A DNA stretch of 53,982 bases, taken from IMG/VR virus record IMGVR_UViG_3300044766_000063, positions 1-53,982 of that record. One strand, written 5' to 3'. Position numbers and translations under genes: made by a program. This stretch comes from a virus (lineage: Duplodnaviria > Caudoviricetes). The notes beneath the pieces are model-generated. The model did not search any database, was not told the origin of the DNA, and saw only the letters and a list, made by a program, of their open reading frames with translations. Below are positions 20,385 to 36,415 of the stretch, piece after piece (position 1 is the first letter of the stretch; each line of letters begins with the position of its first letter).

Positions 20385-22091
20385 ATGGCAGCTTTTCTCT
20401 CTCCGATCTTTGGTGCAGGGGCGCAGTTATTCAACAATCAGGGGATCGTTCTTTCTGGCGGGAAGATTTACACCTATCAGGCCGGTACGACAACTGCCCA
20501 AACAAGTTGGACTGACTCTACTCAGGTCGTGGCAAATGCCAATCCGATCATTCTGGATAGTGCGGGCCGTCCTACCTCTGAAATCTGGTTGTTGTCCGGT
20601 CAGCCTTATAAATTTATCCTGACTGACTCAAACAATAATACGCTGGGGACATGGGATAACGTCTCTGGTGTGAATGATGTGAGCTTTACTGCCGCGGTAT
20701 CCGAGTGGCAGGCTTCATCTTTAACGCCAACTTATGTCAGTGCAACTTCGTTTTCTGTACCTGGCAATAACGTTGCAATGTTTCAAACCAATCGCAGGGT
20801 TCAGATCACCGTCACTGCGGGTACGATTTATGGCTACATTGTTTCTTCAGTTTTCAGTACGGTAACGACGGTCGTTATTCAGCCGGATTCGACAAGTCTT
20901 GATTCGGGTATCTCTGTTGTTAATCTCGGTCTTCTAACGGTTACTCATCCCTCGGTGCCGCAAGAATATCCGGCATTTAATGCACCCGTAAACGTTTCTT
21001 CCGCCACTTCGCCTACGCCAATCGGTGCTGCATTGTCTGCGAACGTTACGATCACGGGGACAACGACTATTACGGCGTTTGATAACGTAATCGCCGGGAT
21101 TATCAGGTTTGCCAAATTTTCCGGCATTCTGACGCTGACATATAACGGCACAAGCTTGATTCTGCCGACTACCGCCAATATCACGACTGCGGCAAATGAT
21201 GAGGCGGTCTTTCGTTCACTTGGGTCTGGTAACTGGGAATGCATAAGTTATAACCGGGCTTCCGGCTATGCATTCTTTTCAGACTTTGCTGCTTCGATTC
21301 AAACAAACGCAACTGCCGTAACTCAGGCCGGTCAGGACAACAGCACAAAAATCGCCACGACTGCTTATGTTGATCAACAACATGACGCCCAGATATTTTC
21401 TGCGAACGGTACTTGGACAAAACCTGCATGGGTTATGCCTAATGCCACTGTCCGGGTTGAAATGTGGGGTGGTGGAGGTGGTGGTGGTGCAGGCTCTGGT
21501 GGAGGTGGTGGTGCTTATGCTTGTCGAACTTTTAAAGCTTCTGATTTAGCTGCTACGGAAGCTGTTGTTGTTGGTGCGGGTTCGGCTGCGAATAGCGGTC
21601 TTGCGGGTGGAAATACTTCGTTTAGTAGTGGAACAAAATTAATCACTGCTTATGGTGGTGGTGGTGGTGCTGCATCGAACTTTGGTGCGGGTGGTGGCGG
21701 CGGGGCTTATGGCGCAGGCACAAGCGGTTCTGGAACTACTGATGGTGTTGGTGGTGCCGGGTATTCTACCAGTGGCGTAGCTACGGCTGCTGGCGGGATT
21801 GGGGTTGGGGATGCAGGAGCAAGCGGTTTAGGTACTGGCGCTGCTGGCGCTGGCTTGCCTGCCTTTATGGGCGGCGGAAGTGGTGTACATGGAAATGTGG
21901 CAGCCGCAGGCGGGTTTTCCACTTATGGTGGAGCGGGTGGTGGTCAAACAAGTGCCGGTCTTTCATTATACGGTGGCAATGGCGGATCAAGCGGTGTTGC
22001 TGGCAGTATCCCTGGTGGCGGTGGCGGGACGAACGGTTCAAGTACTGGCACAAACGGTGCGCGTGGCGAAGTCCGTATCTATATCTTCTGA
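20385..22091 (+). CDS. Tail fibre / tailspike with glycine-rich C-terminal domain
   Basis: N-term GGKIYTYQAGTT...NPIILDSAGR anchor; DNSTKIATTAYV fibre motif; poly-Gly C-terminal domain. Confidence 0.85.
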   Translation: MAAFLSPIFGAGAQLFNNQGIVLSGGKIYTYQAGTTTAQTSWTDSTQVVANANPIILDSAGRPTSEIWLLSGQPYKFILTDSNNNTLGTWDNVSGVNDVSFTAAVSEWQASSLTPTYVSATSFSVPGNNVAMFQTNRRVQITVTAGTIYGYIVSSVFSTVTTVVIQPDSTSLDSGISVVNLGLLTVTHPSVPQEYPAFNAPVNVSSATSPTPIGAALSANVTITGTTTITAFDNVIAGIIRFAKFSGILTLTYNGTSLILPTTANITTAANDEAVFRSLGSGNWECISYNRASGYAFFSDFAASIQTNATAVTQAGQDNSTKIATTAYVDQQHDAQIFSANGTWTKPAWVMPNATVRVEMWGGGGGGGAGSGGGGGAYACRTFKASDLAATEAVVVGAGSAANSGLAGGNTSFSSGTKLITAYGGGGGAASNFGAGGGGGAYGAGTSGSGTTDGVGGAGYSTSGVATAAGGIGVGDAGASGLGTGAAGAGLPAFMGGGSGVHGNVAAAGGFSTYGGAGGGQTSAGLSLYGGNGGSSGVAGSIPGGGGGTNGSSTGTNGARGEVRIYIF

Positions 22092-22525
22092 TGAATTCCG
22101 CCCCAATCTCTTCCGGCTGGGGTGATGCTAAATCCGGCCCTGTTCAAATCTGGGCGTTATGGTTTCAAAATGTCTGGAACATTCTTAACGCTGCCGTTGT
22201 CGGTAACGATACCTACGTCACTACAACCAACATAACCCATGGCGGGACTTTAACCAAGTCCATGATGATCACAAAAGTCGGTCGTCAAGTTACGGTTGTT
22301 CTGGCTTATTCGGATACGGTCTCGACTTCCTCAACAATCGGCGTAACCACTTTTTCTCTTCCTTACGTTCCTCTTGCAATCTCTGTTGGTGCCGCGATCA
22401 ATGCGACTACCCATGCTTCTTTGGGAAGTGGTTATGTCGCTACCGATGGGAAGCTCTATCCACCAACTTCCACAACAGGTGCGGGACAATCTGTTGTGAT
22501 GACTGTGACTTATTTTTCTACTTAG
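22091..22525 (+). CDS. Putative tail-associated protein
   Basis: TGATG coupling to the fibre gene; WALWF N-terminal helix and beta-rich C-terminus. Confidence 0.5.
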   Translation: MNSAPISSGWGDAKSGPVQIWALWFQNVWNILNAAVVGNDTYVTTTNITHGGTLTKSMMITKVGRQVTVVLAYSDTVSTSSTIGVTTFSLPYVPLAISVGAAINATTHASLGSGYVATDGKLYPPTSTTGAGQSVVMTVTYFST

Positions 22526-22526
22526 T

Positions 22527-22943
22527 ATGGACGCTATCCTTACCCGTGTGCCCTCGACAGAGCAGGGTACGTTCGGTACGTTTGTCCTTGAAGATGGCAC
22601 AGCTTATCACTCGTTGGAATTGCCATGGCGATCCAATATGAATGGCGTGAGTTGTATTCCGCCAGGTGAATATATCTGTCACTGGATTTTTTCACCCAAG
22701 CACGGGGAGTGTTATCAGGTAATGAATGTGGCAGAAAGAGACATGATCGAAATCCACAGTGCAAACTTTGCCGGTGATGCAAGCAAGGGTTATCTTTCCC
22801 AGTTGATGGGCTGCATTGCTTTGGGAATGTCTGTGGGTGTTTTGAACGGACAGCTTGCTGTGTTGAACAGTAAGGGCGCAATCAGGGACTTTGAAGAGAG
22901 ACAAAACCAGCAGGATTTTAAACTGACGATCAGGGAGAAATGA
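22527..22943 (+). CDS. DUF5675-family protein, putative endolysin
   Basis: GTFG...SLELPW..N...SCIPPGEY, IEIHSAN and GCIALG; first gene of the lysis cassette. Confidence 0.75.
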   Translation: MDAILTRVPSTEQGTFGTFVLEDGTAYHSLELPWRSNMNGVSCIPPGEYICHWIFSPKHGECYQVMNVAERDMIEIHSANFAGDASKGYLSQLMGCIALGMSVGVLNGQLAVLNSKGAIRDFEERQNQQDFKLTIREK

Positions 22944-23251
22944 TGGACTCTTTTTTGGGCATGGACTTTGATGCTTTGATCGTTGGTCTCATGGCGGCTA
23001 CGTTTACGACATTCTGGCTTCAGACGGTTGATAATCTTCCCAAGGCGGCTTCTGCAATTCTTTTTTCTGCAATGCTGGCTAGTTTTGGCGGGCCTGTTGC
23101 TTCAGTTTATCTTATTTCTCAATTCGCAAGTCTTACTCAAGCATCCAGTACGTTGCCTTTGCTTGCCGCCGTGATTATCGGCGGATCGGTGACCTGGGCT
23201 TTCCCGGTTCTAATCAATTTTGTCCGTAACAAGTGGGGGAATAATGCATAG
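22940..23251 (+). CDS. Putative holin
   Basis: Three hydrophobic segments and a basic C-terminus, next to the endolysin. Confidence 0.65.
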   Translation: MMDSFLGMDFDALIVGLMAATFTTFWLQTVDNLPKAASAILFSAMLASFGGPVASVYLISQFASLTQASSTLPLLAAVIIGGSVTWAFPVLINFVRNKWGNNA

Positions 23252-23498
23252 TCCATTCATTATCGGCGTGGAAATCTTTTGTGCTGCCATTATCCTTTTT
23301 CGTTCAATCCAGATCGCTGCAAAGCTGGACTGGAAAAGCTGGAAAGGCCATCCACTTCAGTTTGTGGGTAACAGTATTTGCTATCCTTTTCTGGCCGGGG
23401 GAGCTTTGGGGGTTTTGCTGGATCGGACAGGTGGATTCGTTTTATTGTTGGTCGGGATCATGCTCATGATCCTGTCTGATAGACGGAGAGCAAGGTGA
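23244..23498 (+). CDS. Membrane protein (holin or antiholin candidate)
   Basis: Hydrophobic segments and DRRRAR C-terminus within the lysis cassette. Confidence 0.55.
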   Translation: MHSPFIIGVEIFCAAIILFRSIQIAAKLDWKSWKGHPLQFVGNSICYPFLAGGALGVLLDRTGGFVLLLVGIMLMILSDRRRAR

Positions 23499-23899
23499 TT
23501 CAAAAGATTGGCTTGTACCTGGCCGCTGTAGCGATTCTTTGTCTTGCTTTATGGTATGGCTATCACAAGATCGAACAGAAAGGCTATGACCGTGCCCAGA
23601 AAGAACTGCAAGTAGCAAATCTGGAACTGGCGATTGCCTATGCCAATCGTTTGACCAAAGCGGAAGGGGAGAGGGATGCAAACCAAACTGTTATTGATCG
23701 TCTTGCTGCTGAGTCTCACAGGGTGCAAATCCATATCCCCGTCTGTCCAAACGCCCAAAATTCAGACGGAACAGCCGGGTTACTTTCTAAGCGAGTGGAC
23801 GAAAGCTTTAGAAATCTTCAGGAACGAGGTACAGTTCTCTTCGAGCGATGCGAAGCATTGAATGCGGATGCGATCAAGGTTAATGCAGTGAGTCAATGA
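23495..23899 (+). CDS. Inner-membrane spanin (Rz-like)
   Basis: N-terminal TM followed by coiled coil; contains an embedded lipoprotein ORF. Confidence 0.75.
   Translation: MIQKIGLYLAAVAILCLALWYGYHKIEQKGYDRAQKELQVANLELAIAYANRLTKAEGERDANQTVIDRLAAESHRVQIHIPVCPNAQNSDGTAGLLSKRVDESFRNLQERGTVLFERCEALNADAIKVNAVSQ
23676..23861 (+). CDS. Outer-membrane spanin lipoprotein (Rz1-like), embedded in +1 frame
   Basis: Signal peptide MQTKLLLIVLLLSLTG-C with lipobox LTGC; purine-rich RBS. Confidence 0.75.
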   Translation: MQTKLLLIVLLLSLTGCKSISPSVQTPKIQTEQPGYFLSEWTKALEIFRNEVQFSSSDAKH

Positions 23900-24042
23900 G
23901 CTTCTTGAATTCGTTTAAGTGCCCACCAGCATAGGCCGCATGATATGGCGTTTATCAAACATAAAATTTCTTTTTCTGCGAAGGCATTTCCAAGCATAAG
24001 CCAGATATTGAACCATAATGCAAATCGTATTAAATTCTTCAT
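23893..24042 (-). CDS. Small membrane protein (49 aa)
   Basis: MKNLIRFALWFNIWLMLG...; start overlaps the upstream stop. Confidence 0.4.
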   Translation of the reverse strand: MKNLIRFALWFNIWLMLGNAFAEKEILCLINAISCGLCWWALKRIQEAH

Positions 24043-24455
24043 TAATGCCGTAACGCAATATTGACGGAATCTTCCTGTTGCTGACTCGCCGCTCTTACAT
24101 GCGCTTCGTAATTAGCAATCTGTTCCGGTGTCATGTCTTCGGGGCAGTATTCAAACATCAATGAGTCAATCATCGCTTGTTGCCTCTTAATTGTGACTGT
24201 CATTTCTTTTGTGAATGACAGCATTTCTTTCAATATTCTTGCTTGCTCATTCGCCACGTCAAACATTTTTTCCAAATAATCGCCATCTGTTTCTTTTGAT
24301 AATCTCATTGGCAGACTGCCAATGGAAGTACCAACCCACCAAGCGGAAATCGCCGGATAGACAAACATCATTACCTTATAAGGCAGCAGAAAGACCGCAA
24401 ATATCCAAACCAGAAGCAGTGAAGCCATCACGCCGAACGCATCAATTTTATTCAT
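24042..24455 (-). CDS. Membrane protein
   Basis: Two N-terminal TMs; AAGGAG RBS. Confidence 0.6.
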   Translation of the reverse strand: MNKIDAFGVMASLLLVWIFAVFLLPYKVMMFVYPAISAWWVGTSIGSLPMRLSKETDGDYLEKMFDVANEQARILKEMLSFTKEMTVTIKRQQAMIDSLMFEYCPEDMTPEQIANYEAHVRAASQQQEDSVNIALRH

Positions 24456-24465
24456 CCCGTTCTCC

Positions 24466-24600
24466 TTAACTATTTCTGAACCAATCCCTGAAGGCTGCTT
24501 CTTCCCTGCGTGATTGCCTGTAGCTATAGAACATCATAATCAAATTTGGAAAAAGCCACCCAACCAACACGCCAGCCATAAAAATAATCCAATTACTCAT
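24466..24600 (-). CDS. Small membrane protein (44 aa)
   Basis: MSNWIIFMAGVLVGWLF...; ATGA coupling, AAGGA RBS. Confidence 0.45.
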   Translation of the reverse strand: MSNWIIFMAGVLVGWLFPNLIMMFYSYRQSRREEAAFRDWFRNS

Positions 24601-24797
24601 AATTTTCCTTTCAAAATAAAGATCGCTTTAATGATCCGATAAAAATATTCAGTCGCAACAAGAAATAAAAGGAATCCAAGAAATCCGGTGATAGTATGGA
24701 AATCCTGAACCGAATAAGCCCAATAAATGAAATAGCAACTCCATGCCCGTAACTGGGCGAAGGCGAAATCTCTGGCGGTTGCCCGATCAAGCTTCAC
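24597..24797 (-). CDS. Small membrane protein
   Basis: Two hydrophobic segments; overlaps both neighbours. Confidence 0.5.
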   Translation of the reverse strand: MKLDRATARDFAFAQLRAWSCYFIYWAYSVQDFHTITGFLGFLLFLVATEYFYRIIKAIFILKGKL

Positions 24798-25354
24798 TCA
24801 AAAAATTCCCGAATATCACCAAACTTGCAGTTCGCCCCAATAAACAAAAATCCCTGAATCATATTCAGATCGCTCATATTAAAATATGGCACTTTTGCAC
24901 CCGGATTATTTTTGATGTCGCAAGGAATAGGATCATCTGCAACGCTGATGTGTGATCTGCAAATAAGCGGACGTACTTCATAGATGCTGCATTCCTTGTT
25001 TACAAGAAACGGGCAAACTTTGCCGGTATATTTTTTCACCATTTCTTCTCTGCTGTCTTCTTCGGGATTATATCCGTCAAAACTGGCAATCTTTTTGCCT
25101 GTCACCTTGGCTATCTGCGCTGCCTCCCATGAAGAAATAGCGATCATCTGATAACAACAATGGGAGCAACCTTTTTTGCATGGCGCAAGAGGTGTAACCA
25201 TTGCCGCAAGTTCATCGGTTATCTCCAACATGCGTTTTGCCCGCCAATCCAGATTTCTGGGTAAATCCAGAAGGCGCATTGCTTCCATCATTAATTGCTG
25301 AAATCGAGCGCCATGTTTTTCTTTAACGCTATCGGCTCTTTGTTCTGGTGTCAT
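24794..25354 (-). CDS. YkgJ-family cysteine-cluster (Fe-S or Zn) protein
   Basis: CKKGCSHCC...CPFL...CSIYEVRPLICR. Confidence 0.85.
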   Translation of the reverse strand: MTPEQRADSVKEKHGARFQQLMMEAMRLLDLPRNLDWRAKRMLEITDELAAMVTPLAPCKKGCSHCCYQMIAISSWEAAQIAKVTGKKIASFDGYNPEEDSREEMVKKYTGKVCPFLVNKECSIYEVRPLICRSHISVADDPIPCDIKNNPGAKVPYFNMSDLNMIQGFLFIGANCKFGDIREFFE

Positions 25355-25752
25355 TTCATCCCCTCAGCCAATCTTTTAGCATCCTTCGCACTCATCCCGG
25401 CATATCCCACAAAAATCGAATCAGGTCTTGGTAATTCAATCCCAATCGGCCTCCATAAATGCAGGCAGTACGGATGATTGTTCACGTAATTACTCTTTGG
25501 CGGATGGTACTGAACAACACAGTCTGTATCGTCCCAGAAGATGTCTTTCACCTGGCACATTTCTTCCCAAGTAGGACAGCGATCTACGCGGGAAACTGAG
25601 ACATGCTGCCAGCCCATTCCTTCAGATGCAATTACATTTAATTTTTGCCTGTGGCGGACAATACATATAAATGCGCCATTGTTCCCGTAACGCTCATCGG
25701 TTGCTGCCAAGCCCTTTCGGACACGGAATTTCTCAGGTACGTGAAAAGTCAT
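25351..25752 (-). CDS. Conserved phage protein
   Basis: WQHVSVS..RCPTWEEMCQVKDIFW...YVNNHPYCLHLW, a widespread phage family. Confidence 0.75.
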   Translation of the reverse strand: MTFHVPEKFRVRKGLAATDERYGNNGAFICIVRHRQKLNVIASEGMGWQHVSVSRVDRCPTWEEMCQVKDIFWDDTDCVVQYHPPKSNYVNNHPYCLHLWRPIGIELPRPDSIFVGYAGMSAKDAKRLAEGMK

Positions 25753-25839
25753 GCAATTTCCTTAAAATTGAGCTTGACGTAGGGTTATAAGATATTGCAT
25801 TCTATTGTATAGCGCAAGGCTAATTCTTTTGGAGCATCT

Positions 25840-26271
25840 ATGGTGAATTATTACAAACTGGATGGCAAAGAGATTGTTCAATGCCGGGACATGATGGAGT
25901 GGGCCAACTGGTATGAGACTGCTTGTACTACCGGGGTGCGGCATGTTGCGCTGGATTTTATTTGCGGGATCAGAGTTTCTACCGTTTTTCTCGGGTTGGA
26001 TCATAATTTTTCCATGAGCGGTAGGCCGGTCTTGTTTGAGACGATGACGTTTATTGGGCGTTACAATGAAGCACAGTACAGATATTGTACTTATGAAGAT
26101 GCCGAAGCTGGGCACAAAGAAATTATCAAAGACATAAAACGTCACCCTTGGAGCTTAATTGCGTTGCCTTGGTTGAGATATATCTGGATGAGAATTGTGC
26201 TGCCGCGATTGCAAGCTGTAATCAATAAAATATGGGAACTGCGTGACAAGATCAAATCGAGAATCCAATGA
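25840..26271 (+). CDS. Conserved phage protein
   Basis: VSTVFLGLDH...LFETM motif; GGAG RBS. Confidence 0.65.
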   Translation: MVNYYKLDGKEIVQCRDMMEWANWYETACTTGVRHVALDFICGIRVSTVFLGLDHNFSMSGRPVLFETMTFIGRYNEAQYRYCTYEDAEAGHKEIIKDIKRHPWSLIALPWLRYIWMRIVLPRLQAVINKIWELRDKIKSRIQ

Positions 26272-26492
26272 CTCTCCCAATATGGACGATTTACGATCAT
26301 CCAAGTGATTACCCAGATTACTTCATTGCCCGGAAATGGTTGGTCGGATCAAAAAAGAATGAGCCTGAAGCAACGGATGAGGTGATTGCCCGAGCTACAT
26401 TGGATGAGGTGCGCGACTCATTGCCGCCTGGTCTGTATTGTATTGGCCGGAAAGTGGGCGATGATCCGGTTATTGTTGAAGTGTGGCTTTGA
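26268..26492 (+). CDS. Conserved small phage protein
   Basis: WTIYDHPSDYP...DDPVIVEVWL; ATGA coupling. Confidence 0.65.
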   Translation: MTLPIWTIYDHPSDYPDYFIARKWLVGSKKNEPEATDEVIARATLDEVRDSLPPGLYCIGRKVGDDPVIVEVWL

Positions 26493-26700
26493 AAAAAGGT
26501 GTCTATGTGTAATGCAAATATTGCGATTTGGCTTTTGTTGGTATGTTCATTTGCCTTTATGGTTTTGAACGTTTATTTATTTTTTAAGCTACACAAGATA
26601 CACGCTGAAATGTTGGCGCTTTTGGATTCATGGAAAGAGAATTAATGCAAAAACAAGAACTGAAAGTCGGCATTGATCAGTTCGCACAGTACGTGGTCTT

Positions 26701-26943
26701 TCATAGTTGGCCCCATGGCGTTAATTTATAGCAGTCATCGCAAACGATCAGACATTCGGTTAAATCAAAACCATTCTGTTCTGCTTCAGCCCGAGCTTCT
26801 TCATCTTTCCAATCATCGGAAAAAGCGAAAATCCCGCCGCACATTGCGCAACGGTATTCTCCGTCTTGTACTTCAGCGTCCGGGTATTTCAATGCCGTCT
26901 TATATGCCAAAGCTTGTATGAAATCGTCAGGAATTTTAGTCAT
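26701..26943 (-). CDS. Zn-ribbon-like protein
   Basis: CAMC and CDDC pairs; ATGA coupling. Confidence 0.55.
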   Translation of the reverse strand: MTKIPDDFIQALAYKTALKYPDAEVQDGEYRCAMCGGIFAFSDDWKDEEARAEAEQNGFDLTECLIVCDDCYKLTPWGQL

Positions 26944-27161
26944 TCGTACATCCTCTTAAACGTATCACTCCGCACCCATCGCTTTGAGACATTGTTCAGC
27001 ACCATATTGCCAGGTGCCAGTTGGTTGTATAGCTGAAAGTCTCGCGTTACCGTAGCTCCACCGATCCCAAAGTAATCTTCCAGTTCAGCACGGCCTACAG
27101 CGCCATAGTGAGCAAGCAGGAAGTCGATCATTCTGAGGCGTTGTTCGAGGGCGTAGTTCAT
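26940..27161 (-). CDS. Stand-alone BrxR/CapW-like winged HTH protein
   Basis: RLRMIDFLL...GRAELEDYFG...TRDFQLYNQLAPGN...F; no WYL domain follows. Confidence 0.7.
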   Translation of the reverse strand: MNYALEQRLRMIDFLLAHYGAVGRAELEDYFGIGGATVTRDFQLYNQLAPGNMVLNNVSKRWVRSDTFKRMYE

Positions 27162-27403
27162 TTGATCCGCTCTACGCAAATCAAATAACGAATATCTCCT
27201 GACGTGGCAGCACTTACGGCTGTAAAAAGCTCTGTCTTGAATTTGCGCTTCTTCAGTGTTGCAGGACGACGACTGATCGGCGCATTCATGGTTCGCATAT
27301 CATTTGGATATTGTTCAAGGCCGGTTTCCTCGTAACGTCTTTCGCCAAGCTCAAAGGATTCAAGCCAGCCATTCCAGCTATTCTTTCTTGCAACTTTACC
27401 CAT
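27158..27403 (-). CDS. Hypothetical protein
   Basis: Coupled to both neighbours. Confidence 0.55.
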   Translation of the reverse strand: MGKVARKNSWNGWLESFELGERRYEETGLEQYPNDMRTMNAPISRRPATLKKRKFKTELFTAVSAATSGDIRYLICVERIK

Positions 27404-28218
27404 TATATTTCCCTTCTTAACTCCATCGCCCTTACCTGAGAGCATCCAAGAAACTCACGGATGCCCCTGACTGACTTTTGGCACTCCCCAGCAGTAACAG
27501 CACCCCGTAACATCGTAACAATATCCGTTACTGGTTGAGTAACGCAAGTAGTACCGTTACTTAACGGTGTAATAACGGTAGACTCGCGGCGCATTGCCTC
27601 ATACCAGAGCAGGGCACCAATAAGCTCAAGCAGGACAGAGAACGTCAGGCCGATGGCTACAGCTACCTGAGACTCGTTCCAGCCCGTTACTGCGGCCAAA
27701 CGGGCTGTTACTGGATCAGTAACGGGGATATTGGCGACAGTAACAACGGCTGAAAGCCTTGCCAGATCGTCGAGCAGCACTTGAGCGCGTTTGCCTTCAG
27801 CGATTTCAGCCCTCAAAGCAGCTCTTTCCCGGCGATCCTCAGACAAGGCCAGTTCAGCCGTCACAGTAGCGATAGGGCGTGCCGCAATACGGCTCAGAGC
27901 GTCTTTGGCCGTGTCGATCTGTCTCTGGGTGCCCACGGCCAAGGCTGACTGCTGGGCACGGTTATCTGCGGCACGCTGGGCTGAATTGGTGAAAAACGTT
28001 AGATGGCCGTAAATCGCTCCCACAAGACATCCCATCCAGACCAGCCAAGTAACAGGACGGCGCGACATGGCTGGGAGTAGGTGGACGGCGACCACGATGA
28101 CGACTGACATGGCGACTAGGACGGCTTTATCGGCGAAAGTCCCACCCCGATCCCAAGCAGCGATTGCGGTCATGGTGACGGCGGTAGAAGTAACGAAAAT
28201 GGCGATGGGTTTGATCAT
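27403..28218 (-). CDS. Multi-TM coiled-coil protein with C-terminal HTH-like segment
   Basis: About four TMs and SVRGIREFLGCSQVRA; GGAGG RBS. Confidence 0.6.
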   Translation of the reverse strand: MIKPIAIFVTSTAVTMTAIAAWDRGGTFADKAVLVAMSVVIVVAVHLLPAMSRRPVTWLVWMGCLVGAIYGHLTFFTNSAQRAADNRAQQSALAVGTQRQIDTAKDALSRIAARPIATVTAELALSEDRRERAALRAEIAEGKRAQVLLDDLARLSAVVTVANIPVTDPVTARLAAVTGWNESQVAVAIGLTFSVLLELIGALLWYEAMRRESTVITPLSNGTTCVTQPVTDIVTMLRGAVTAGECQKSVRGIREFLGCSQVRAMELRREI

Positions 28219-28358
28219 ATTTCCTCCAGGTTTAATCTGTTCGTAGGGTATGTGATTATTTATTTCCCTTGCCAAACACTTTGGCGTCACCTACTATGCG
28301 CGCCGTTGTGACTTGGTGGTTTGGCAAAAAATATTTTATAGGTGTTGAAAATATTGTT

Positions 28359-29975
28359 TCATTTCAACGCTATATAAAGGCTCTGTGGTTGAAGATAATG
28401 TGCGCATCCTGCCCCCGCAACCAAATTAATCTTCAGGGCAATATGTAGCCCTGAACTCGGGACTTCTGCGGTCAAAAAGCCGTCTGTTGGCCGCAGAACC
28501 ACTTCCCCTACCAGTTGGCGTAGAGCTTCCCTAGCAATCTCAATATGTTCAGTATTCCCTAGTGAAGACACCAAATCTTCATACATTTCACGGGCACGCG
28601 GGATCAATTCGGTTGGCTGGTAACGCTCAAACTCCTTTAGTTCGCCTTGGACATCCTTTAGCTTTTGTTCGCTATCTCGCAATGCAGCTTTTACCGATGG
28701 AGAGTCAATCCCGCCCATGATTGCTTTAATCAGGTTATCTATTTCCTTTTGGGTGTCGGCAATTTTCTTTTTGATAAGCGATGCATCAGGTGCGCCAGAC
28801 TTTAAAGAGGCGCGCACATTCTTTTCAAAATCAAGGTATGCTTCTTCAGATAGAAGTTCTCTTTTAATGCCTGTCAGCAATTCTCCTTCGACTGTTGATC
28901 GTTTGATCTGTAGGTTGTTACTGCAAACACTATTACCGCGATCTTTATGAAACGCGCACCCATATTTTGTCTTGTTTACCATGGTGTAATTTGCGCCACA
29001 TACGCCGCACTTTAAAAGCCCGCTGAATAAGTATTTGGACGGCGCACTACTGCTGCATCCCTTTCCATTTGCAGAGCCTTTACCGTTTTTTCTATTCTCA
29101 TCTGCGATGGCTTTTTTTGCCCGGATACGTTTGTCACATTTAATCCATGTCTCATCGTCAATAATGCGCAGTTCCGGCAAATTAACTGTTTTCCATTCCT
29201 CCTTTGGTCGCATGGTACGTAAACGTTTCCCGGTAGTCGGGTCTTTGACCCACTTTGTTTTATCGAACATCGGACTACCGATATAAGTTGAATTGCACAA
29301 CATGCCAACTTCTTTGGCGCTGGGATGAATTGAAGAGGGAGACCACGTACCGCCTGCTGGGCCTTTTACGCCTTTTTCATTTAATTCGGTAGCGATCTGG
29401 CGTGCTGCCGCGCCTTCTGAATAACGCTTGAAAATATACCGTATCCACTGAGCCTGTTCATTATTGATAGCAAGTTTAGAACCGTTGCCATCAGGAATTA
29501 AGTTATAACCATACGGTTTAGCGCCAGCGGAATATCCTTTTAAAAATTGCCCTTCAAGACCGCGATGTGTTTTTTTGGCGAGGTCATCCAGATATAATTC
29601 ACCCATCAAGCCACGAAGACTTGTTTCGATTTTAGAGTTATCTCTTGCGGTATCAATTCCATCTGAAACACCAATTATTCTGATACCAAGAAACTTAAAT
29701 TGTCGGATGGTAGTTAGGTTTCCTATATTGTCGCGTGACAAACGATCCAAGTCATCTACCAGTAAAATATCAAATGACTTAGCATTGGCGGCAGCTAACA
29801 TTTCCAGATACCCAGGACGATCATTGCGCGATCCGCTGATAGCCTGATCTTTATAAGCGATAGGCATTGGGAGATTATTGCGAGTGCAATAATTTTGAAT
29901 ATTGCGCAACTGGTCTTCAATTGAAGCCTCGCGCTGCATATCAGATGAGTAACGAAGGTAACAAGCGGTTCTCAT
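28359..29975 (-). CDS. Large serine integrase
   Basis: YLRYSS catalytic motif, DDLDRLSRD, recombinase domain, Zn ribbon LLKCGVCG..YGC..C and coiled coil. Confidence 0.95.
   Translation of the reverse strand: MRTACYLRYSSDMQREASIEDQLRNIQNYCTRNNLPMPIAYKDQAISGSRNDRPGYLEMLAAANAKSFDILLVDDLDRLSRDNIGNLTTIRQFKFLGIRIIGVSDGIDTARDNSKIETSLRGLMGELYLDDLAKKTHRGLEGQFLKGYSAGAKPYGYNLIPDGNGSKLAINNEQAQWIRYIFKRYSEGAAARQIATELNEKGVKGPAGGTWSPSSIHPSAKEVGMLCNSTYIGSPMFDKTKWVKDPTTGKRLRTMRPKEEWKTVNLPELRIIDDETWIKCDKRIRAKKAIADENRKNGKGSANGKGCSSSAPSKYLFSGLLKCGVCGANYTMVNKTKYGCAFHKDRGNSVCSNNLQIKRSTVEGELLTGIKRELLSEEAYLDFEKNVRASLKSGAPDASLIKKKIADTQKEIDNLIKAIMGGIDSPSVKAALRDSEQKLKDVQGELKEFERYQPTELIPRAREMYEDLVSSLGNTEHIEIAREALRQLVGEVVLRPTDGFLTAEVPSSGLHIALKINLVAGAGCAHYLQPQSLYIALK
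28406..28423 (+). other. Putative attP core: 3' end of initiator tRNA-Met
   Basis: ATCCTGCCCCCGCAACCA matches the T-arm and acceptor 3' strand with CCA of tRNA-fMet; lies inside the integrase 3' end. Confidence 0.65.
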
Positions 29976-30139
29976 TTTTTTATCTTTCCTAAAATTGTGC
30001 GCGCCTCTTTAATAAGTTCGGGCCGCCTTGATTTGGGGGTTGAATAATACAGATTGATCGCATCTGGATATTTCAAATAATTTTTTGCGGCTTGATCTGC
30101 AAGAAGACGAACCAGCGTTTGAATGTGTGGATTTAACAT
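29972..30139 (-). CDS. 55-aa protein coupled to the integrase (directionality factor candidate)
   Basis: AAGGAGG RBS; MLNPHIQTLVRLLADQAA...; ATGA overlap with the integrase start; not in the ORF track. Confidence 0.55.
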   Translation of the reverse strand: MLNPHIQTLVRLLADQAAKNYLKYPDAINLYYSTPKSRRPELIKEARTILGKIKK

Positions 30140-30148
30140 ATAACCTCC

Positions 30149-30358
30149 TTAATGCAATGCATGGCCGGGTTTCATTGCCCATTCTGTGTAACCCTGCATA
30201 TTTATAAGGAAATCTGAATCGCCGTCCCATACCCAAACTTCTCCTTCAGCCCACATGCCAGAATCAATCCTTTGCTGAATTTCTTCTACGGTGTATCCGG
30301 TTAATTCCGCAGCTTTGCGAACCGTAACGAACTGCGCCCTACCCAATATGGCATTCAT
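30149..30358 (-). CDS. Excisionase-like protein
   Basis: VTVRKAAELTGYT...IDSGMWAEGEVW pattern; near the integrase. Confidence 0.65.
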   Translation of the reverse strand: MNAILGRAQFVTVRKAAELTGYTVEEIQQRIDSGMWAEGEVWVWDGDSDFLINMQGYTEWAMKPGHALH

Positions 30359-30368
30359 ATCGTTCTCC

Positions 30369-30557
30369 TTACTTTTTCTTCGGTTTAATTTCCGGTGGCT
30401 CTACGCCGTGCATTTCAGATAAAGCCTCTTCGATCATTGCGGCTTGGCTTGTGCCTTCCTGTTCCGAATACTCGCGCATCCAGGTAACCAGCCATTGCGG
30501 CAGTCTGTAACTCACAGGTACTTTGATAATATTTTTATCTTTGAAAGGCGCTGCCAT
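30369..30557 (-). CDS. Ribbon-helix-helix DNA-binding protein
   Basis: VPVSYRLPQWLV...SQAAMIEEAL. Confidence 0.6.
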   Translation of the reverse strand: MAAPFKDKNIIKVPVSYRLPQWLVTWMREYSEQEGTSQAAMIEEALSEMHGVEPPEIKPKKK

Positions 30558-30654
30558 TTCTCTCTCCTTGTCGGATCAGGCCAGTCCTTCACCGTGATTA
30601 CAGTCTATACATTAATTAAATTAAAGTAAAGACATTTATTTCCTTAGCCTGTTC

Positions 30655-30882
30655 TTACAAATCAGACAGGCGGCAAAGCGCCTGAGTTAATTCCGGGTAT
30701 TTTTCATGGAATTCTTTTGATGCGTTTTCGTTAAGACATTTCACTCCATGCTCAAGGTCTGATTGAAGCGCATCACTGAACATATCCTGGATAGTGGCAA
30801 GTTGAGTTTCAAGCTTATTTAAGCGATCCGCCATTTCCAGTGGATTGAGCGTGCATAGACGTTTCAATTCAGACTTATTCAT
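30655..30882 (-). CDS. Hypothetical protein
   Basis: ORF directly after ssb. Confidence 0.55.
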   Translation of the reverse strand: MNKSELKRLCTLNPLEMADRLNKLETQLATIQDMFSDALQSDLEHGVKCLNENASKEFHEKYPELTQALCRLSDL

Positions 30883-30884
30883 AC

Positions 30885-31325
30885 TTAAAACGGAATATCT
30901 GAATCGAAGTTATCATCAAATTTCTTTGCCGGTTCCGCCGAATCACTGCTTGTATGTGTTGCGGCTTGAGGTGTTTTTTCCAGATCGGTTGTACCCTTAC
31001 TCCCCAGCATCTTCATTTCGTTCACGATGATTTCAGTCGTGTAACGATCCGCGCCGGATTCCTTGTCCTGCCATTTACGTGTCTGGATTTTTCCTTCCAC
31101 GTAAATCTGCGCACCCTTTTTCAAATATTCTCCGGCGATTTCAGCGAGGCGGCGATAGAAGACCAAGTGATGCCATTCCGTCTTTTCCTTTTTTTGGCCG
31201 TCTTTATCCTTCCAGTTTTCGGAAGTCGCAAGCGACACATTGGCTACCGCTTCGCCAGTGGTCATGTAACGAATTTCCGGGTCTTTACCCAAATGGCCCA
31301 CAAGAATCACTTTGTTGACTGACAT
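30885..31325 (-). CDS. ssb: Single-stranded DNA-binding protein
   Basis: [28 protein letters not shown] and C-terminal DIPF. Confidence 0.97.
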
Positions 31326-31436
31326 ATCGTTCCTTTATTTTTTAGGTTGCCTATATCAAACAGGGAAAATACAAATCAATTACTTACTTAAAAATTATCC
31401 GAATTGGGCGGTATTAGATTGTGCTAATGTTGTTTT

Positions 31437-31667
31437 CTATATCTCGTTAGGCATCGTCAAATTCCATGCTGCTTTCCACGCTTCCCATGCGCAAATGGCT
31501 GGCCTGAACACAGGCTCTCCTTCGTGCATACCGCAAGTGTCAAGTGTTGTTGTTCTTGCCCATATCATAAATCTACCTTTGCATTCACCATGCCTATCAA
31601 GCAAGAACTTTTCGTGCCTTTCGTCCGGCTTACATCTGCTTTTCTTTAGTGATTTAGTATGCATCAT
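31437..31667 (-). CDS. Hypothetical protein carried in a putative gene cassette
   Basis: GGAG RBS; AWEAWKAAW; ends in MPNEI across a GTTAGGC core site. Confidence 0.55.
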   Translation of the reverse strand: MMHTKSLKKSRCKPDERHEKFLLDRHGECKGRFMIWARTTTLDTCGMHEGEPVFRPAICAWEAWKAAWNLTMPNEI

Positions 31668-31687
31668 TTACTCTCCGTAGTTAGAAT

Positions 31688-31745
31688 GCCTAACACGGCA
31701 TTCAAGGCGGACTGCTTCGCAGCCGCTTAATTTGAATCGTTAGGC
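31688..31745 (+). mobile_element. Integron attC-like recombination site
   Basis: R'' GCCTAAC, L'' ATTCAAG, central hairpin, L' GCTTAAT, R' GTTAGGC; 58 bp. Confidence 0.75.
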
Positions 31746-31755
31746 ACCACGAACT

Positions 31756-33669
31756 TCATTGCTCCGCCCTAAGTTTCGTAACCTTTTCCTGAAGCAAATT
31801 TTCCAGCGCCGTACTATTGCCGTTACAGAACGTAAAGCCCAGATGATCCCTCATCGCTGCTTGTGTTGGATGTGAAACAAAGCGCGTCATGAGAATACCT
31901 ATATCTCCGTGCTTTATGCTCTCTCTGATCTGTTGGTTGGGCACGTTCGATCCGATAAATTTAAAGTCGAATATGTGACCGAATCGTTTCTGAATGTCAT
32001 TCGTTTGCACGGGAAGCAATCCAACGACGATAACTTTTTTCTTCTGCGGCTTTTCTTCCTTTTCTGGTTGTGGCGTGTTGACAGCGGGCATACTCATACC
32101 TCCTGCCGCCAATTGCTCTCGAACGACCTTTTCAAATGCGGCCATCATCATTGCCTGCATGTCCATTATTGGTGCCTGGACAGGGGCGACTATTTCTGGA
32201 AGCTTTACCGGCTCTGGTTCACGCACTTCCGGTGGACGCCTGCCTATCTCATCCAGCAGGGGAAGAAGCCATGGAATTGGGCTGGGTGTAGGCGGCATGT
32301 TTGCACGTTGTTTATGCGCAGGCATTTCACTATTCGCCTCATTTAAAATCTTTTGCCAGCCCCAGCCCGGATTTACTTTGCGAAGCTGGTAAGTAATTTC
32401 GGCAAAAAATTGTTTATCCTCGTCGCTTAAAAATAGTTTAGCGCCGTGTTGTTTGGATTGTTTTCTCTCTTTAACTTCCGGTGCCCGATCTTCAGCTTTT
32501 GGAAGCGTTCCGCGATGATCAATCACGACTTTGCTCTTGTCAGCCTCTTCCAGTTTGGCAAGGGCACGTTGTAGCCATGGCACGCTGCTTGGATTAATGA
32601 CGCTATCGGCGATCTTATGCCCCTCTGGCATAAAAGCATTAGCTTCCTTCATGCAACGAGTCCATGTGGCTCCACCTTTTCTTAAACCGTAAACAATTTC
32701 GGCAAACTTTTCTTTATCCTTGTCCGTCAGTACGCATTCCCATTTTGACTTAACCTTGGGCGGATTTTCAAGTTGCTCAAGCAAAGGAATGATCCATGTA
32801 ATTTGTTTCACACTATCTATACCCGCGCCGACTTTACGATCATCTGGAAGAAGAGAGTTTGCATGACGAATGGCATGTAGATTACCGGCTTCGGGATTAG
32901 ACTTTTTGAATTCAAAAAAGGCTGTGGCAAAAGCCAGTCTTTCATCGGTACTCAGCGGCTGTCTTTTTAATGGCTTTTCGAGTTGTTCGAGCATAGGCTT
33001 TATCCAGGGTATTTGGTTAATACTATCCAGCGAATCATGTAGTCGCCGATTTTCAGGTAATGCTTTATTGGCTTCACGAAGACAGGCAAGGGGTCTATTG
33101 TCTGAATTATTTTTCTGCGCGGCGTGGAAAGCCTTCGCAAAAATCCACCTCTCTTCTTTGGTTAGGTCAATTCGTTTTAATTCTCCCGGCGCAGATTGTC
33201 TTCTTGATTGAGGCTTTTTGGGTTCGGCTTGAATTTGCTCGATCAGGTCTTTTAGCCATCTAAGATGATTCAAAGCAGAAATACGTTCACCCACTCTTCG
33301 ATCCGCTGGCATTTGATCGTTTGCATAACGAATGGCATTCGCATAACCGCCTTTGGGATTGCTTTGTATGGCAGATAAAACATTTTCTGCAAAAATACGT
33401 TTTTCAACATCCCGCAACATTAAGTTCTTTGGTTGTGATGAATCAACATTGCCGCCCATTTTTTCAAGTAGAGGCTCTAACCACGTCACTTTGCTTGGAT
33501 GGTCGATTTTCTCACTTAGTCGTCTTTTAGTTGGTAGAGCGGCACGCGCCTGCGCAAAAACAGTTTTCCAGGGCAAATCTGGATTGGCTTTTTTGGCTTT
33601 ATAAATTGCCGTGGCAAATATCATTCTTTCCTCATCATTAAGAACGGTTGGTGCAGATTTCGTTGCCAT
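31756..33669 (-). CDS. Protein with six tandem helical repeats and a DUF2325-like C-terminal domain
   Basis: Repeat LxxxE/DxxxFA...AxxxL/MP...WL/I six times; C-term KVIVVGL...ILMTRFVSH. Confidence 0.7.
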   Translation of the reverse strand: MATKSAPTVLNDEERMIFATAIYKAKKANPDLPWKTVFAQARAALPTKRRLSEKIDHPSKVTWLEPLLEKMGGNVDSSQPKNLMLRDVEKRIFAENVLSAIQSNPKGGYANAIRYANDQMPADRRVGERISALNHLRWLKDLIEQIQAEPKKPQSRRQSAPGELKRIDLTKEERWIFAKAFHAAQKNNSDNRPLACLREANKALPENRRLHDSLDSINQIPWIKPMLEQLEKPLKRQPLSTDERLAFATAFFEFKKSNPEAGNLHAIRHANSLLPDDRKVGAGIDSVKQITWIIPLLEQLENPPKVKSKWECVLTDKDKEKFAEIVYGLRKGGATWTRCMKEANAFMPEGHKIADSVINPSSVPWLQRALAKLEEADKSKVVIDHRGTLPKAEDRAPEVKERKQSKQHGAKLFLSDEDKQFFAEITYQLRKVNPGWGWQKILNEANSEMPAHKQRANMPPTPSPIPWLLPLLDEIGRRPPEVREPEPVKLPEIVAPVQAPIMDMQAMMMAAFEKVVREQLAAGGMSMPAVNTPQPEKEEKPQKKKVIVVGLLPVQTNDIQKRFGHIFDFKFIGSNVPNQQIRESIKHGDIGILMTRFVSHPTQAAMRDHLGFTFCNGNSTALENLLQEKVTKLRAEQ

Positions 33670-33756
33670 TTCATTACTCCTAAGTAGATAACTTGATTAA
33701 AGTTGCCCGAATGTAAAATTAGCATTCCGCTATACATTCTAATCAAATTACCCTAC

Positions 33757-34371
33757 TTAGCCAATAGACTTTAAAATCTCCTGTACCAACTCTAAAAACT
33801 CCTGTCTGCGCTCGTTTAGCCTTATAATCTCGTTCTTCACCTGATCCTTGTAGACCCTGTAGGTGATCAATTGTTTGTGGGCAGGGAAGTCTGAACAGTA
33901 ACTTGCAAAGTCCACCCAGTCCCTTCCTGTGCAGTCCAAATGCCCAACGAGTTGCCACTTATAAACCGGATCAAAACTTCCCCGGCGCAGGGTTGCGTAG
34001 TGTGTTTTGGCGATGACTGATTTGACCTCCAAAACGCCTTCATCGCCAACCAGCCCGTCCGGTGAGTCGCCATAATCGTTCCAGTCAAAAAATCCGCCAT
34101 TGGTTACTGTTGCAAAGTGTTCTTCTTCGTACAACATCCTGGCAACAGGCTCTTGTTCGTGGCCTCGCTCGGTGTGTTCGTTGCTGAAGCTGAATTCAGC
34201 CCTCTTACCTGTTGCCAGTTCCAGCGCAAGTTGCAGCGCATAGTCTTTTGCTGGATCGCCAAAAGCTTTTCCATCGTTTGCCATGAAGCAACCAAATCTT
34301 GAGGCTGTAGCTTTACCCAGTCGCAGGTCAAACCAACCCTCGGAATTTTGTTCGACATCATGGAATTTCAC
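33757..34371 (-). CDS. YqaJ / lambda-exonuclease family protein
   Basis: QNSEGWFDLRLGKATAS, RGHEQEP, SPDGLV..LEVK and YKWQ motifs. Confidence 0.9.
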   Translation of the reverse strand: MKFHDVEQNSEGWFDLRLGKATASRFGCFMANDGKAFGDPAKDYALQLALELATGKRAEFSFSNEHTERGHEQEPVARMLYEEEHFATVTNGGFFDWNDYGDSPDGLVGDEGVLEVKSVIAKTHYATLRRGSFDPVYKWQLVGHLDCTGRDWVDFASYCSDFPAHKQLITYRVYKDQVKNEIIRLNERRQEFLELVQEILKSIG

Positions 34372-34879
34372 TCGTAACCTCTTTGCATTGTTCGATCAAC
34401 AGCATTTGATGCTCGTCGGACATCAAGACACGTTCCAGCACTGTTTTGAGATTACCGTCACGCCTGAAAGCTGCCTTGGCACCTTCCCAGAGTTTTTCAT
34501 TGCCGGGTGTGAGAAATATTTTCTTGGATTCATGCGCCCGGATACGCAAGCCGTCCATCGTCTCTTTGCCAAAACGAACGTTGTGATCCACATAGACCAT
34601 CACTTGTATGTTGTTCCAGTCATTGATATAGGGTGAGTCGGCCAAAGTCTTCATGGTCTTGCTGTTACCGGCATTCAGGATCATGGGTTTCAACTTTTCA
34701 CCTGGACGGATTTCTTTTTCAACAAAATGCGCTGTGTTGAAAACGTCCTTGGTTTTCTTTGTCCGATCCGGCTCAAGCGTGACATGATCTATTGTCAGCA
34801 CAACAGGCTCAACGATGTCTGCGCTGGACAGGTAAGGGGAGTCAAAAGCTTTTCTGTAATGTGTTTTCGTTTCAGCCAT
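34358..34879 (-). CDS. Putative recombination (ssDNA annealing or binding) protein
   Basis: THYRKAFDSPYL..D, KPMILN and GLRIR; paired with the exonuclease; likely start MAETK. Confidence 0.55.
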   Translation of the reverse strand: MAETKTHYRKAFDSPYLSSADIVEPVVLTIDHVTLEPDRTKKTKDVFNTAHFVEKEIRPGEKLKPMILNAGNSKTMKTLADSPYINDWNNIQVMVYVDHNVRFGKETMDGLRIRAHESKKIFLTPGNEKLWEGAKAAFRRDGNLKTVLERVLMSDEHQMLLIEQCKEVTSEIP

Positions 34880-35228
34880 TTTTCTTAGCCTCATGTTTTG
34901 CACAACCAAGCCAATACTTCTCCACCAGTTGCTGAATGGCAGTAAGCGCCAAGTGATTGGCATATTGATTATTGAGTTGCAGATCAACAGCGGAAGCAAC
35001 TGAAGCAAACACAGCAATACGATCACCATTGGGCGCGTTGCCAATAGCCTCTTCAAAGTGTTCAAACGTCCACGGGTGAAATTCTTGGCCGACCTCAACC
35101 AAATACAAGGCTTCTTCCTCGATCAGTTGATTCTGGCGCTCTTTGGCAGCTTCGGCATCAAGGTAGCGGCTCAGATCGCTCCTGAACGCTTTCCTTTCAA
35201 TATCCGCTGTATTGGTTCCAAACATCAT
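34872..35228 (-). CDS. Hypothetical protein, first gene of the leftward early operon
   Basis: Downstream of PL; overlaps the next start. Confidence 0.6.
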   Translation of the reverse strand: MMFGTNTADIERKAFRSDLSRYLDAEAAKERQNQLIEEEALYLVEVGQEFHPWTFEHFEEAIGNAPNGDRIAVFASVASAVDLQLNNQYANHLALTAIQQLVEKYWLGCAKHEAKKNG

Positions 35229-35257
35229 TGCCCCTTTGGTAGCATTGTGTTGGAGAG

Positions 35258-35307
35258 AGAATATTAGCGTGACGCATACTTGTCAAGTTTATTTTGCGTC
35301 ACGCATA
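35258..35307 (-). promoter_or_regulatory. PL promoter with two operators
   Basis: Minus strand TTGACA-17-TATTCT; operators TTAGCGTGACGCATA (35264-35278) and TTTGCGTCACGCATA (35293-35307). Confidence 0.75.
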
Positions 35308-35318
35308 TTATTGGCAAT

Positions 35319-35344
35319 AAAAAACCAGCCGAAGCTGGTTTCTT
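35319..35344. terminator. Terminator, possibly bidirectional, ending the cI transcript
   Basis: AAAAAACCAGC-cgaa-GCTGGTTT. Confidence 0.65.
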
Positions 35345-35360
35345 ATAATGTGCAAGCTGG

Positions 35361-35483
35361 TTAGTCAGTTGCTTGTTCCAATTGCTCTTTTATTAATTTC
35401 TGTGCAGTTTCCATTAATTGCTGCTTTTGCTCATCTGTCATCCCTCTGTACAGAGCCAGCAGTTCGTCAAGTTCAGCTTGCAT
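35361..35483 (-). CDS. 40-aa protein resembling the repressor C-terminal helix pair
   Basis: GAGGGG RBS; MQAELDELLALYRGMTDEQKQQLMETAQKLIKEQLEQATD; not in the ORF track. Confidence 0.55.
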   Translation of the reverse strand: MQAELDELLALYRGMTDEQKQQLMETAQKLIKEQLEQATD

Positions 35484-35659
35484 AAAGCCCCCTCGCGTAT
35501 CGAACCCTAAACCCTCCTACACTCTCCCAATAACATGAACTTATTATTACCAGCCGAAATTGTTCATGTAATTTTTATCGGGAGAGGGATTCTACATAGC
35601 CGATGAAAAAAAACAAGGGGAAATTATTGACTTTTACTTGGATACGTAGTTATACGTAT

Positions 35660-36052: not shown

Positions 36053-36106
36053 GATGCGGCTATTATTTAGCTGTGCGCTACATTTTGCAAGTATTTTCTG
36101 TGTCGC

Positions 36107-36136
36107 TTGACAAACGTTAGCGTCACGCACAATAAT
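36107..36136 (+). promoter_or_regulatory. PR promoter with operator in the spacer
   Basis: TTGACA at 36107, AATAAT at 36131; operator TTAGCGTCACGCACA (36117-36131). Confidence 0.7.
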
Positions 36137-36143
36137 ATGCGTC

Positions 36144-36377: not shown

Positions 36378-36415
36378 GTCTGAAGTCACACCTTTCAAGG
36401 AAAGGGCGTACCGGA

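Follow-up and report, generated by a model that had tools for sequence, protein, structure and literature searches.

The complete IMG/VR virus record IMGVR_UViG_3300044766_000063 (Duplodnaviria; Caudoviricetes), a stretch of 53,982 nucleotides hereafter called the window, encodes on its minus strand a 73-residue protein which is a complete domain of the BrxR/CapW winged helix-turn-helix (wHTH) type and nothing else. BrxR and CapW are repressors of wHTH-WYL-WCX architecture that control bacteriophage exclusion (BREX) systems, cyclic oligonucleotide-based antiphage signalling systems (CBASS) and other defence islands, and the phage protein lacks the linker helices, the WYL domain that senses single-stranded DNA (ssDNA) and the WCX domain. 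Judged from the sequences of its relatives, it is a member of an old and conserved stand-alone family that is mostly phage-borne and under purifying selection. What such a protein does for a phage is weighed below, and the role to which we tentatively lean is the silencing of defence operons.

A BrxR/CapW-type DNA-binding domain

The original prediction for this gene, made from the sequence and its motif, had assigned its product to the BrxR/CapW family, and this assignment is fully borne out by sequence, profile and fold. A phmmer search of PDB chains with the single protein returned BrxR (7qfz, E = 4e-7) and CapW (7tb6, 5.8e-5; 7tb5, 1e-4), all matches falling on the N-terminal residues ~12–91 of those chains. 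A profile of 32 homologs returned 7tb5 (1.8e-13), 7tb6 (1.7e-12), 7qfz (2.2e-12), 9c5g (6e-6) and 7t8k (1.1e-5), after which the next match in the PDB was the Trp repressor at E = 0.9. Each element of the motif pattern quoted in the prediction is present in the translation, namely R8-L9..I12-D13-F14..L16 and G20...R24..L27...F31, followed by T39-R40-D41-F42..Y45..L48-A49-P50.N52 and F68. An AlphaFold2 model built from the 32-homolog alignment, with a predicted local distance difference test score (pLDDT) of 96.2, consists of three helices (residues 3–19, 24–31 and 35–48, the last being the recognition helix) and a two-stranded wing (53–56 and 61–64). Foldseek, which had been proposed as a check, superimposes this model on BrxR 7qfz and CapW 7tb6 over all 73 residues at a template modelling (TM) score of 0.96–0.97; across the BrxR/CapW chains the query TM score (TMq) is 0.94–0.97, with a root mean square deviation of 0.6–0.8 Å over 70–73 columns, and the next fold family is IclR, at a TMq of ~0.6 and E = 2e-2.

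Family labels point the same way. The precomputed Pfam tag PF26109, named WHD_BrxR in the Atlas, is attached to 32 of 32 short homologs, and the nearest Atlas clusters of ~70-residue proteins are labelled ‘BrxR transcriptional regulator wHTH domain-containing’, with PF26109 on 96–99% of their members; membership of the protein itself in PF26109 is by precomputed tag and Atlas label only, the local copy of Pfam being without that model. Scans of the 73-residue protein gave nothing at E≤1 in this Pfam copy and nothing at E≤0.1 in PHROGs, while NCBIfam gave TIGR02293 only (E = 0.097) and PADLOC gave a CRISPR-associated WYL model (E = 0.0075) on the first 53 positions.

It had also been predicted that the stop codon falls where the WYL domain would begin. 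The frame does end where the wHTH ends, but not at the WYL boundary. Pfam WYL starts at residues 110–123 in full-length relatives, and linker helices lie between the two domains (residues 84–94 in BrxR_Efer and 71–119 in BrxR_Acin, according to the published structures); as such, the 73-residue frame ends some 35–45 residues before WYL and is without the linker as well.

The positions that are at least 80% conserved are identical in 82 short and 37 long domains (R8, L9, I12, G20, R24, F31, D41, Y45, P50, N52, Y/W62 and F68), and no position in this comparison is conserved solely in the short set. An ungapped HMMER alignment to Sm CapW equates R24 with R32, and G34, T37 and T39 with S42, Q45 and S47. 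In the published account of Sm CapW, both the R32A substitution and a triple mutant at S42, Q45 and S47 are reported to abolish DNA binding. Recognition-helix positions 34–37, 43, 46 and 47 vary in the short and long sets alike, as is expected of positions that set specificity. From these alignments we infer that the 73-residue protein still binds double-stranded DNA through its recognition helix and wing, as the full-length repressors do.

Predicted as two copies, the protein gave a median score of 0.45, against 0.01 for the best of three controls; among solved structures, 20 of 30 same-chain pairs and 1 of 23 single chains attain this mark of 0.45. The contacts agreed in 100% between prediction runs, the pLDDT of the partner was at least 92, and the predicted interface falls within residues 14–19 (14–15 and 17–19) and 25–30 (25–26 and 29–30), together with residue 73, leaving helix 3 and the wing free. 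The protein is thus probably a symmetric homodimer through helices 1 and 2, a prediction that supports DNA binding and does not show it.

A stand-alone family carried mostly by phages

The survey of wHTH-only homologs that had been suggested recovers a conserved stand-alone family, mostly on viral contigs. A word-indexed search returned 32 candidates of 40–128 residues, 32 of 32 at E≤1e-3 and with identities of 47–100%, and 26 of these 32 short homologs are 72–73 residues long. For longer relatives the same index offered 78 candidates with none at E≤1e-3, a result that reflects the limit of the index, since an exhaustive search did find full-length relatives. That search, over representatives at 50% identity, yielded 326 proteins at E≤1e-3; among the best 150 of the 326, 82 end no more than 12 residues past the domain, 37 have at least 150 further residues and the other 31 are intermediate. 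Pfam WYL is present in all five tested proteins of 272–295 residues.

IMG/VR and a collection with one genome for each species were scanned; they provided 31 viral and 5 genomic loci, and each of the 36 has a frame that stops where the domain ends. Counted by profile over these loci and the window, 44 of 47 copies have their stop no more than 2 residues from the edge of the domain, the exceptions being the second copy of L017 and those of L030 and L031. A profile built from the WYL-WCX part of 35 full-length relatives gave no match at E≤10 when run on the 36 loci and the window in six frames, and recovered two host full-length genes, used as positive controls, at 2.7e-86 and 1.2e-41. A Pfam WYL search of the entire 53,982-base record was likewise without a match, with controls positive in 7 of 14 genomes. 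Among 18 gene copies, the nonsynonymous polymorphism rate was below the synonymous one (pN<pS) in 153 of 153 pairs, and the ratio of nonsynonymous to synonymous substitution rates (dN/dS) was 0.06–0.19 where dS was unsaturated. The original prediction had allowed for the homologs being nothing but degraded remnants of WYL genes; given the conserved stop and the purifying selection, they are not.

The relation between short and long forms was examined in a quick maximum-likelihood tree of 150 domains over 73 columns. This tree is weakly resolved, with 8 of 147 inner branches reaching 95, and its 150 rows are those most like the query, a choice that favours a short-form clade. Of the 82 short forms, 74 group in a single clade, whose 79 rows also include 5 mid-length forms and zero full-length ones (Shimodaira–Hasegawa-like approximate likelihood ratio test support 86), and the label ‘short’ changes 13 times on the tree, against 49.4 in shuffles. 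Outside this clade, 8 of the 82 short and 26 of the 31 mid-length representatives are found among full-length clades; these may be fragments or truncations.

The association with viruses is also seen in the Atlas clusters of ~70-residue WHD_BrxR proteins, where 50–81% of the members with a record are viral. Among named phages, tblastn gave a sole match, the 75-residue CPT_Sonora_088 of Stenotrophomonas phage Sonora (54% identity), which sits within a long run of small, tightly packed and coupled hypothetical genes, and the BFVD structure collection added a 97-residue protein of Pantoea phage vB_PagM_LIET2 (TMq 0.89). Plasmids gave 421 records, all below 60% identity, and 26 of the 30 listed bear the annotation WYL domain-containing. 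In bacterial genomes the ~300-residue form is nearly the only one, as seen in an even sample of 401 genomes of one class, that of the Dechloromonas host of one of the prophages: 45 of the 401 have a match, and 46 of the 48 matches lie in open frames of 272–428 residues, the two short ones being the known prophage copy and one 92-residue frame. A full-length homolog is found in two of the five host genomes that carry a short prophage copy, compared with 44 of 401 in the background, a difference that is not significant; two of five are too few for this to be a test of co-occurrence. In those two genomes (L044, on contig 12 of G001, and L043, on contig 15 of G005) there is one full-length wHTH-WYL-WCX homolog of ~300 residues each, in frames of 314 and 310 residues, away from the prophage copy.

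Ten of the 36 related loci contain two diverged wHTH copies, mostly in tandem (Table 1), and the window contains one. The paired copies could be heterodimer partners or could serve two different target sites.

Genomic setting

The minus-strand block that runs from ~36.2 kb to 24.0 kb contains, in this order, a repressor-like gene, an exonuclease, a single-stranded DNA-binding protein (SSB), a large serine integrase and then the chain of small open reading frames (ORFs) that includes the wHTH gene, followed in the same block by ORFs with a DUF7694 and a CxxCxxCC domain. The replication and methyltransferase genes run rightward, and the large terminase subunit gene (TerL) lies at 49.5 kb. This arrangement is that of a temperate phage's leftward early operon, whose integrase-proximal accessory end contains the wHTH gene, with the serine integrase gene 1.2 kb upstream on the same strand.

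Table 1. Coordinates of the wHTH gene, of other features of the window, and of related loci with two wHTH copies
Feature	Position	Strand	Remarks
wHTH gene	26940–27161	minus	73 residues and TGA; translated from the window sequence
Upstream ORF	27158–27445	minus	95 residues from first ATG; from ORF table; function unassigned
Downstream ORF	26701–26943	minus	80 residues; two CxxC pairs (zinc-ribbon-like)
295-residue ORF	27403–28290	minus	heads the coupled ORF chain, 68 bp downstream of the integrase gene; function unassigned
Large serine integrase	28359–29975	minus	phrog_95, E = 5.3e-82; Pfam Resolvase, Recombinase and Zn_ribbon_recom
DUF7694 protein	25351–25752	minus	133 residues; Pfam E = 8.8e-32
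637-residue ORF	31756–33669	minus	between exonuclease and SSB genes
TerL	49503–52409	plus	968 residues
Two-copy loci L010/L011, L014–L016, L022, L025			second copy ~300 nt downstream
Two-copy locus L009	6001–6434		copies overlap by a few bases
Two-copy locus L008	4837–5055		
Two-copy locus L017	2584–2790		opposite strand

The original prediction described an intact frame of 73 residues coupled on both sides, and the translation and the two overlaps agree with it. Read from the sequence, the start ATG of the wHTH gene (27161–27159) overlaps the TGA of the upstream ORF (27160–27158) as ATGA, and its own TGA (26942–26940) overlaps the ATG of the downstream ORF (26943–26941) in the same way. The Atlas record of the upstream ORF begins at residue 15, which gives 81 residues (27158–27403), and this 15th codon is probably its true start. 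A start there overlaps the stop of the 295-residue ORF, so that the four ORFs form one coupled chain that begins directly below the integrase gene, at the distance given in Table 1. The neighbours themselves offer few clues. The upstream ORF has weak family matches only (DUF7228, E = 0.09; phrog_3389, E = 0.039) and a weak Atlas lead to DUF7609 (score 0.86–0.89); the downstream ORF has weak Pfam matches only (E = 0.084–0.14) and no PADLOC match; and the 295-residue ORF has no family at significant E in Pfam, PHROGs or PADLOC. No homolog of either coupled neighbour turned up in the 36 related loci, and no match to a defence family of PADLOC was obtained at E≤0.01 among the ten ORFs that neighbour the wHTH gene.

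A close relative of the window phage reveals how this chain can vary. In sediment metagenome run X3, a 2303-base contig with a depth of 52 joins position 26958 to 27435, with 26959–27434 replaced by 50 other letters and both flanks kept. The replaced stretch takes in the wHTH gene together with the ORF before it, and the downstream ORF is kept (piece 26493–26958). The wHTH gene and its upstream neighbour behave as a dispensable two-gene cassette between close relatives. Joints in this run with sides of 27–30 letters (26671–27401, 26699–27157 and 26876–27401) were not used, and the integrase region is without cover in the run.

Among the ORFs of at least 45 residues in positions 22000–36000 of the window, those that recur in the 36 related loci are the wHTH gene (36 loci), the DUF7694 ORF (8) and two ORFs in one locus each. 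The DUF7694 proteins share 48–55% identity, and their gene is ~1.3 kb upstream of the wHTH gene in the related loci and 1.4 kb downstream of it in the window; the recurrence may be chance synteny in one phage lineage or a functional link. A separate family of ~79-residue ORFs is present in nine loci, at +218 to +448 from the wHTH start in L007 and L012, where it comes directly after the wHTH gene and overlaps its end, and at about +1500 in L010, L011, L014–L016, L022 and L025. The setting of the related loci resembles that in the window, with RecT-like genes identified by PHROGs near the wHTH gene in L023 and L027 and a ParB-like gene in L032. A home-made integrase profile detects a tyrosine integrase within 6 kb in five of the 36 loci, four of which PHROGs confirms (L003, L005, L013 and L021).

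Signals in the surrounding DNA added little. Promoter-like sites in 23500–36500 number 20, with 21.1 expected, such that the scan is uninformative on the start of the operon, and terminator-like sites number 25 in the same stretch, with 14.9 expected, none being useful for the wHTH region. No tRNA was found in the window, megablast of positions 24000–30000 gave no match in phages or E. coli genomes, and the serine integrase has no relative in the bacterial genome contigs searched. Elsewhere in the window, the TerL ORF is unusually long; phrog_38 covers its residues 524–961, other terminase models start at 178–189, and among the matches shown none covers the N-terminal ~180 residues. The 637-residue ORF of Table 1 matches no Pfam, PHROGs or PADLOC family.

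Possible roles and relation to known systems

The reading we favour, though with less than even confidence, is that a phage-captured, sensor-less wHTH acts as a constitutive operator mimic which keeps the expression of CBASS, BREX and other WYL-controlled islands basal while infection proceeds and, most of all, when a prophage is induced. The phage would make the protein from its leftward early operon on infection or on prophage induction, and the protein would sit on operators of the BrxR/CapW type at defence promoters of the host or of mobile elements. The CBASS and BREX operons, and others like them, would then stay basal at the very moment when the host regulator would let go, and tandem paralogs in some phages might cover more than one operator type. 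Published work on CapW and BrxR makes such a scheme reasonable to postulate. The binding of ssDNA to the WYL domain misaligns the wHTH domains, and CapW leaves the DNA (PMC11662680); with no sensor, the 73-residue protein presumably could not be released by this signal. CapW mutants in WYL that are unable to derepress give no reporter induction, and their CBASS protection against lambda prophage induction is strongly compromised (PMC11662680), while in Vibrio cholerae WYL-mediated derepression is reported to prime BREX against a phage inhibitor and against counter-defences. By analogy, an early-expressed sensor-less wHTH would imitate the non-inducible CapW mutants if the same operators were recognised. 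The DNA-binding residues, the predicted dimer and the early-left accessory position are all consistent with operator silencing.

Several considerations weigh against this role. All of the elements that hold BrxR/CapW dimers together (the linker helices, WYL and WCX) are absent, the linker helices and WCX being what builds the domain-swapped dimer of those regulators. The dimer prediction, made from a purpose-built alignment, may echo the wHTH domains that lie side by side in BrxR/CapW dimers of known structure. For the Dechloromonas lysogen (G001), the prophage protein and the single full-length homolog of the host differ at two of the three positions equivalent to S42, Q45 and S47, the third being T versus S in an alignment read by eye, and of the five hosts carrying such prophages, only two encode any full-length homolog in their genomes. 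Furthermore, a repressor cannot remove defence proteins that have already been made, so the benefit to the phage would be limited to blocking induction.

Nearly as likely as the silencing of defence, and on its own account doubtful, is that the protein regulates genes of the phage or of another mobile element, either as an Aca (anti-CRISPR-associated)-like autorepressor of a small accessory or anti-defence cassette or as a minor early regulator, the wHTH being a convenient module. The joint absence of the wHTH gene and the upstream ORF of 81 or 95 residues from the close relative in run X3 fits this explanation, as does the conservation of the wHTH while its neighbours vary; a small gene followed by a small HTH gene also resembles an acr-aca pair. 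One related locus, L021, has an inverted repeat (~5911–5939) in the 139-nt gap upstream of the wHTH gene, about 90 nt from the start codon; the arms are 12 bp long with one mismatch, and the spacer measures 5 bp. The format of this repeat matches that of published BrxR operators, and it is the only case that stands out among 30 loci. However, the gene in the window has no upstream intergenic region and is coupled to the preceding ORF, and the window contains no repeated family of operator-like palindromes, with none near the gene. Nor are upstream inverted repeats enriched across the related loci: repeats with arms of at least 9, at most one mismatch and a spacer of 3–8 within 220 nt upstream were scored in 8 of 30 loci, compared with a mean of 6.1 in random 230-nt windows of the same loci, and 50 of 200 control draws reach 8. 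The upstream neighbours, at 53–306 residues, are not uniformly Acr (anti-CRISPR)-like either.

It is improbable that the free wHTH docks on the WYL domain of a host BrxR or CapW and so disturbs sensing or DNA binding. In the full-length dimers, each WYL is described as packing mainly against the wHTH of the other protomer, so a surface that fits a wHTH does exist. Yet displacement of the host wHTH would be expected to derepress defence, to the detriment of the phage, and what the short family conserves is the DNA-binding and scaffold residues that the long forms conserve too, no position being conserved in the short ones only. The earlier suggestion that the protein might interfere with the host regulator finds no support where protein contact is concerned, every dimerisation element of the full-length proteins being absent.

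More improbable still is a recombination directionality factor, an architectural protein akin to an excisionase that would serve the phage integrase. Excisionases have a winged helix too and are about as small, the serine integrase of the window is 1.2 kb away on the same strand, and a tyrosine integrase is within 6 kb in five of the 36 related loci. Against this, the wHTH gene is never directly beside an integrase: two ORFs intervene in the window, and other small ORFs adjoin the integrase in L003 and L005. No relative of the serine integrase of the window is found within 6 kb in the 36 loci, the type of integrase differs (serine or tyrosine) while the wHTH is conserved, and 10 of the 36 loci have two copies of the putative factor. 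The Sonora homolog, moreover, sits in a long early-type run of small genes, and no excisionase is among the 50 PDB matches listed by Foldseek. Least credible of all is that the gene is the non-functional 5′ part of a brxR/capW gene that has decayed, an idea to which the few short and mid-length representatives scattered among full-length clades lend something, and which is opposed by the kept stop position, the clean six-frame WYL/WCX scans, the selection on every pair compared, the translational coupling on both sides and the high pLDDT of the model.

If the protein does silence defence operons, it would be an instance of counter-defence by regulator mimicry at the level of transcription, and its family would mark accessory cassettes that hold further counter-defence genes. 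To our knowledge, known counter-defence proteins mostly act on defence proteins or signals, not on promoters. A conserved, phage-borne and sensor-less copy of the DNA-binding domain is an obvious candidate for a viral answer to control by WYL repressors, which, in published accounts, govern many defence islands and whose derepression matters on prophage induction and in priming against inhibitor-carrying phages. Even if the target is phage DNA, the family would show neatly how a domain can be captured from an immune regulator of the host. These possibilities can be tested with existing CapW and BrxR reporter systems, and the cultured phage Sonora, which carries a homolog, infects a species in which CapW was characterised.

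Of the known systems, BrxR and CapW (7qfz, 7t8k/7t8l, 7tb5, 7tb6 and 9c5g) are the nearest. The phage protein has the same wHTH fold, at 23–30% identity and TM scores of 0.86–0.97, and its identity rises to 53% with a 295-residue full-length relative from a metagenome (P0048); the conserved residue set, including the arginine equivalent to CapW R32, is common to both. Unlike them, it is without linker, WYL and WCX and thus lacks any known means of control by a ligand and any known element for dimerisation. Its gene is part of an early-left accessory operon of a phage, as opposed to heading a defence operon, and the short phage forms make up a clade of their own. Architecturally, it does not count as a BrxR/CapW regulator: it has the wHTH, and it has neither the WYL domain, nor the WCX domain, nor the genomic position. 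PF26109 (WHD_BrxR) is a domain label only and says nothing of a stand-alone phage clade or of its role. Aca-type regulators are similar in being small phage HTH proteins in variable accessory cassettes beside small uncharacterised genes, but they belong to another HTH family, and no upstream operator or promoter was found here in the window or in 30 related loci. Full-text searches of the literature gave us no description of a phage-encoded or WYL-less BrxR/CapW homolog, although the supplementary homolog tables of PMC9122601 and PMC9122589 may list short forms. The closest functional likeness is to the non-inducible CapW WYL mutants S158E and R200A (PMC11662680), which keep the full dimer architecture and the cognate operator specificity, neither of which is shown for the phage protein; what would be shared is a CapW-type DNA binder unresponsive to ssDNA, binding being in our case a prediction. 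Taken together, the comparisons suggest that a phage carries a derivative of a host immune regulator from which the sensor is missing, and that its putative counter-defence role lends itself to direct test.

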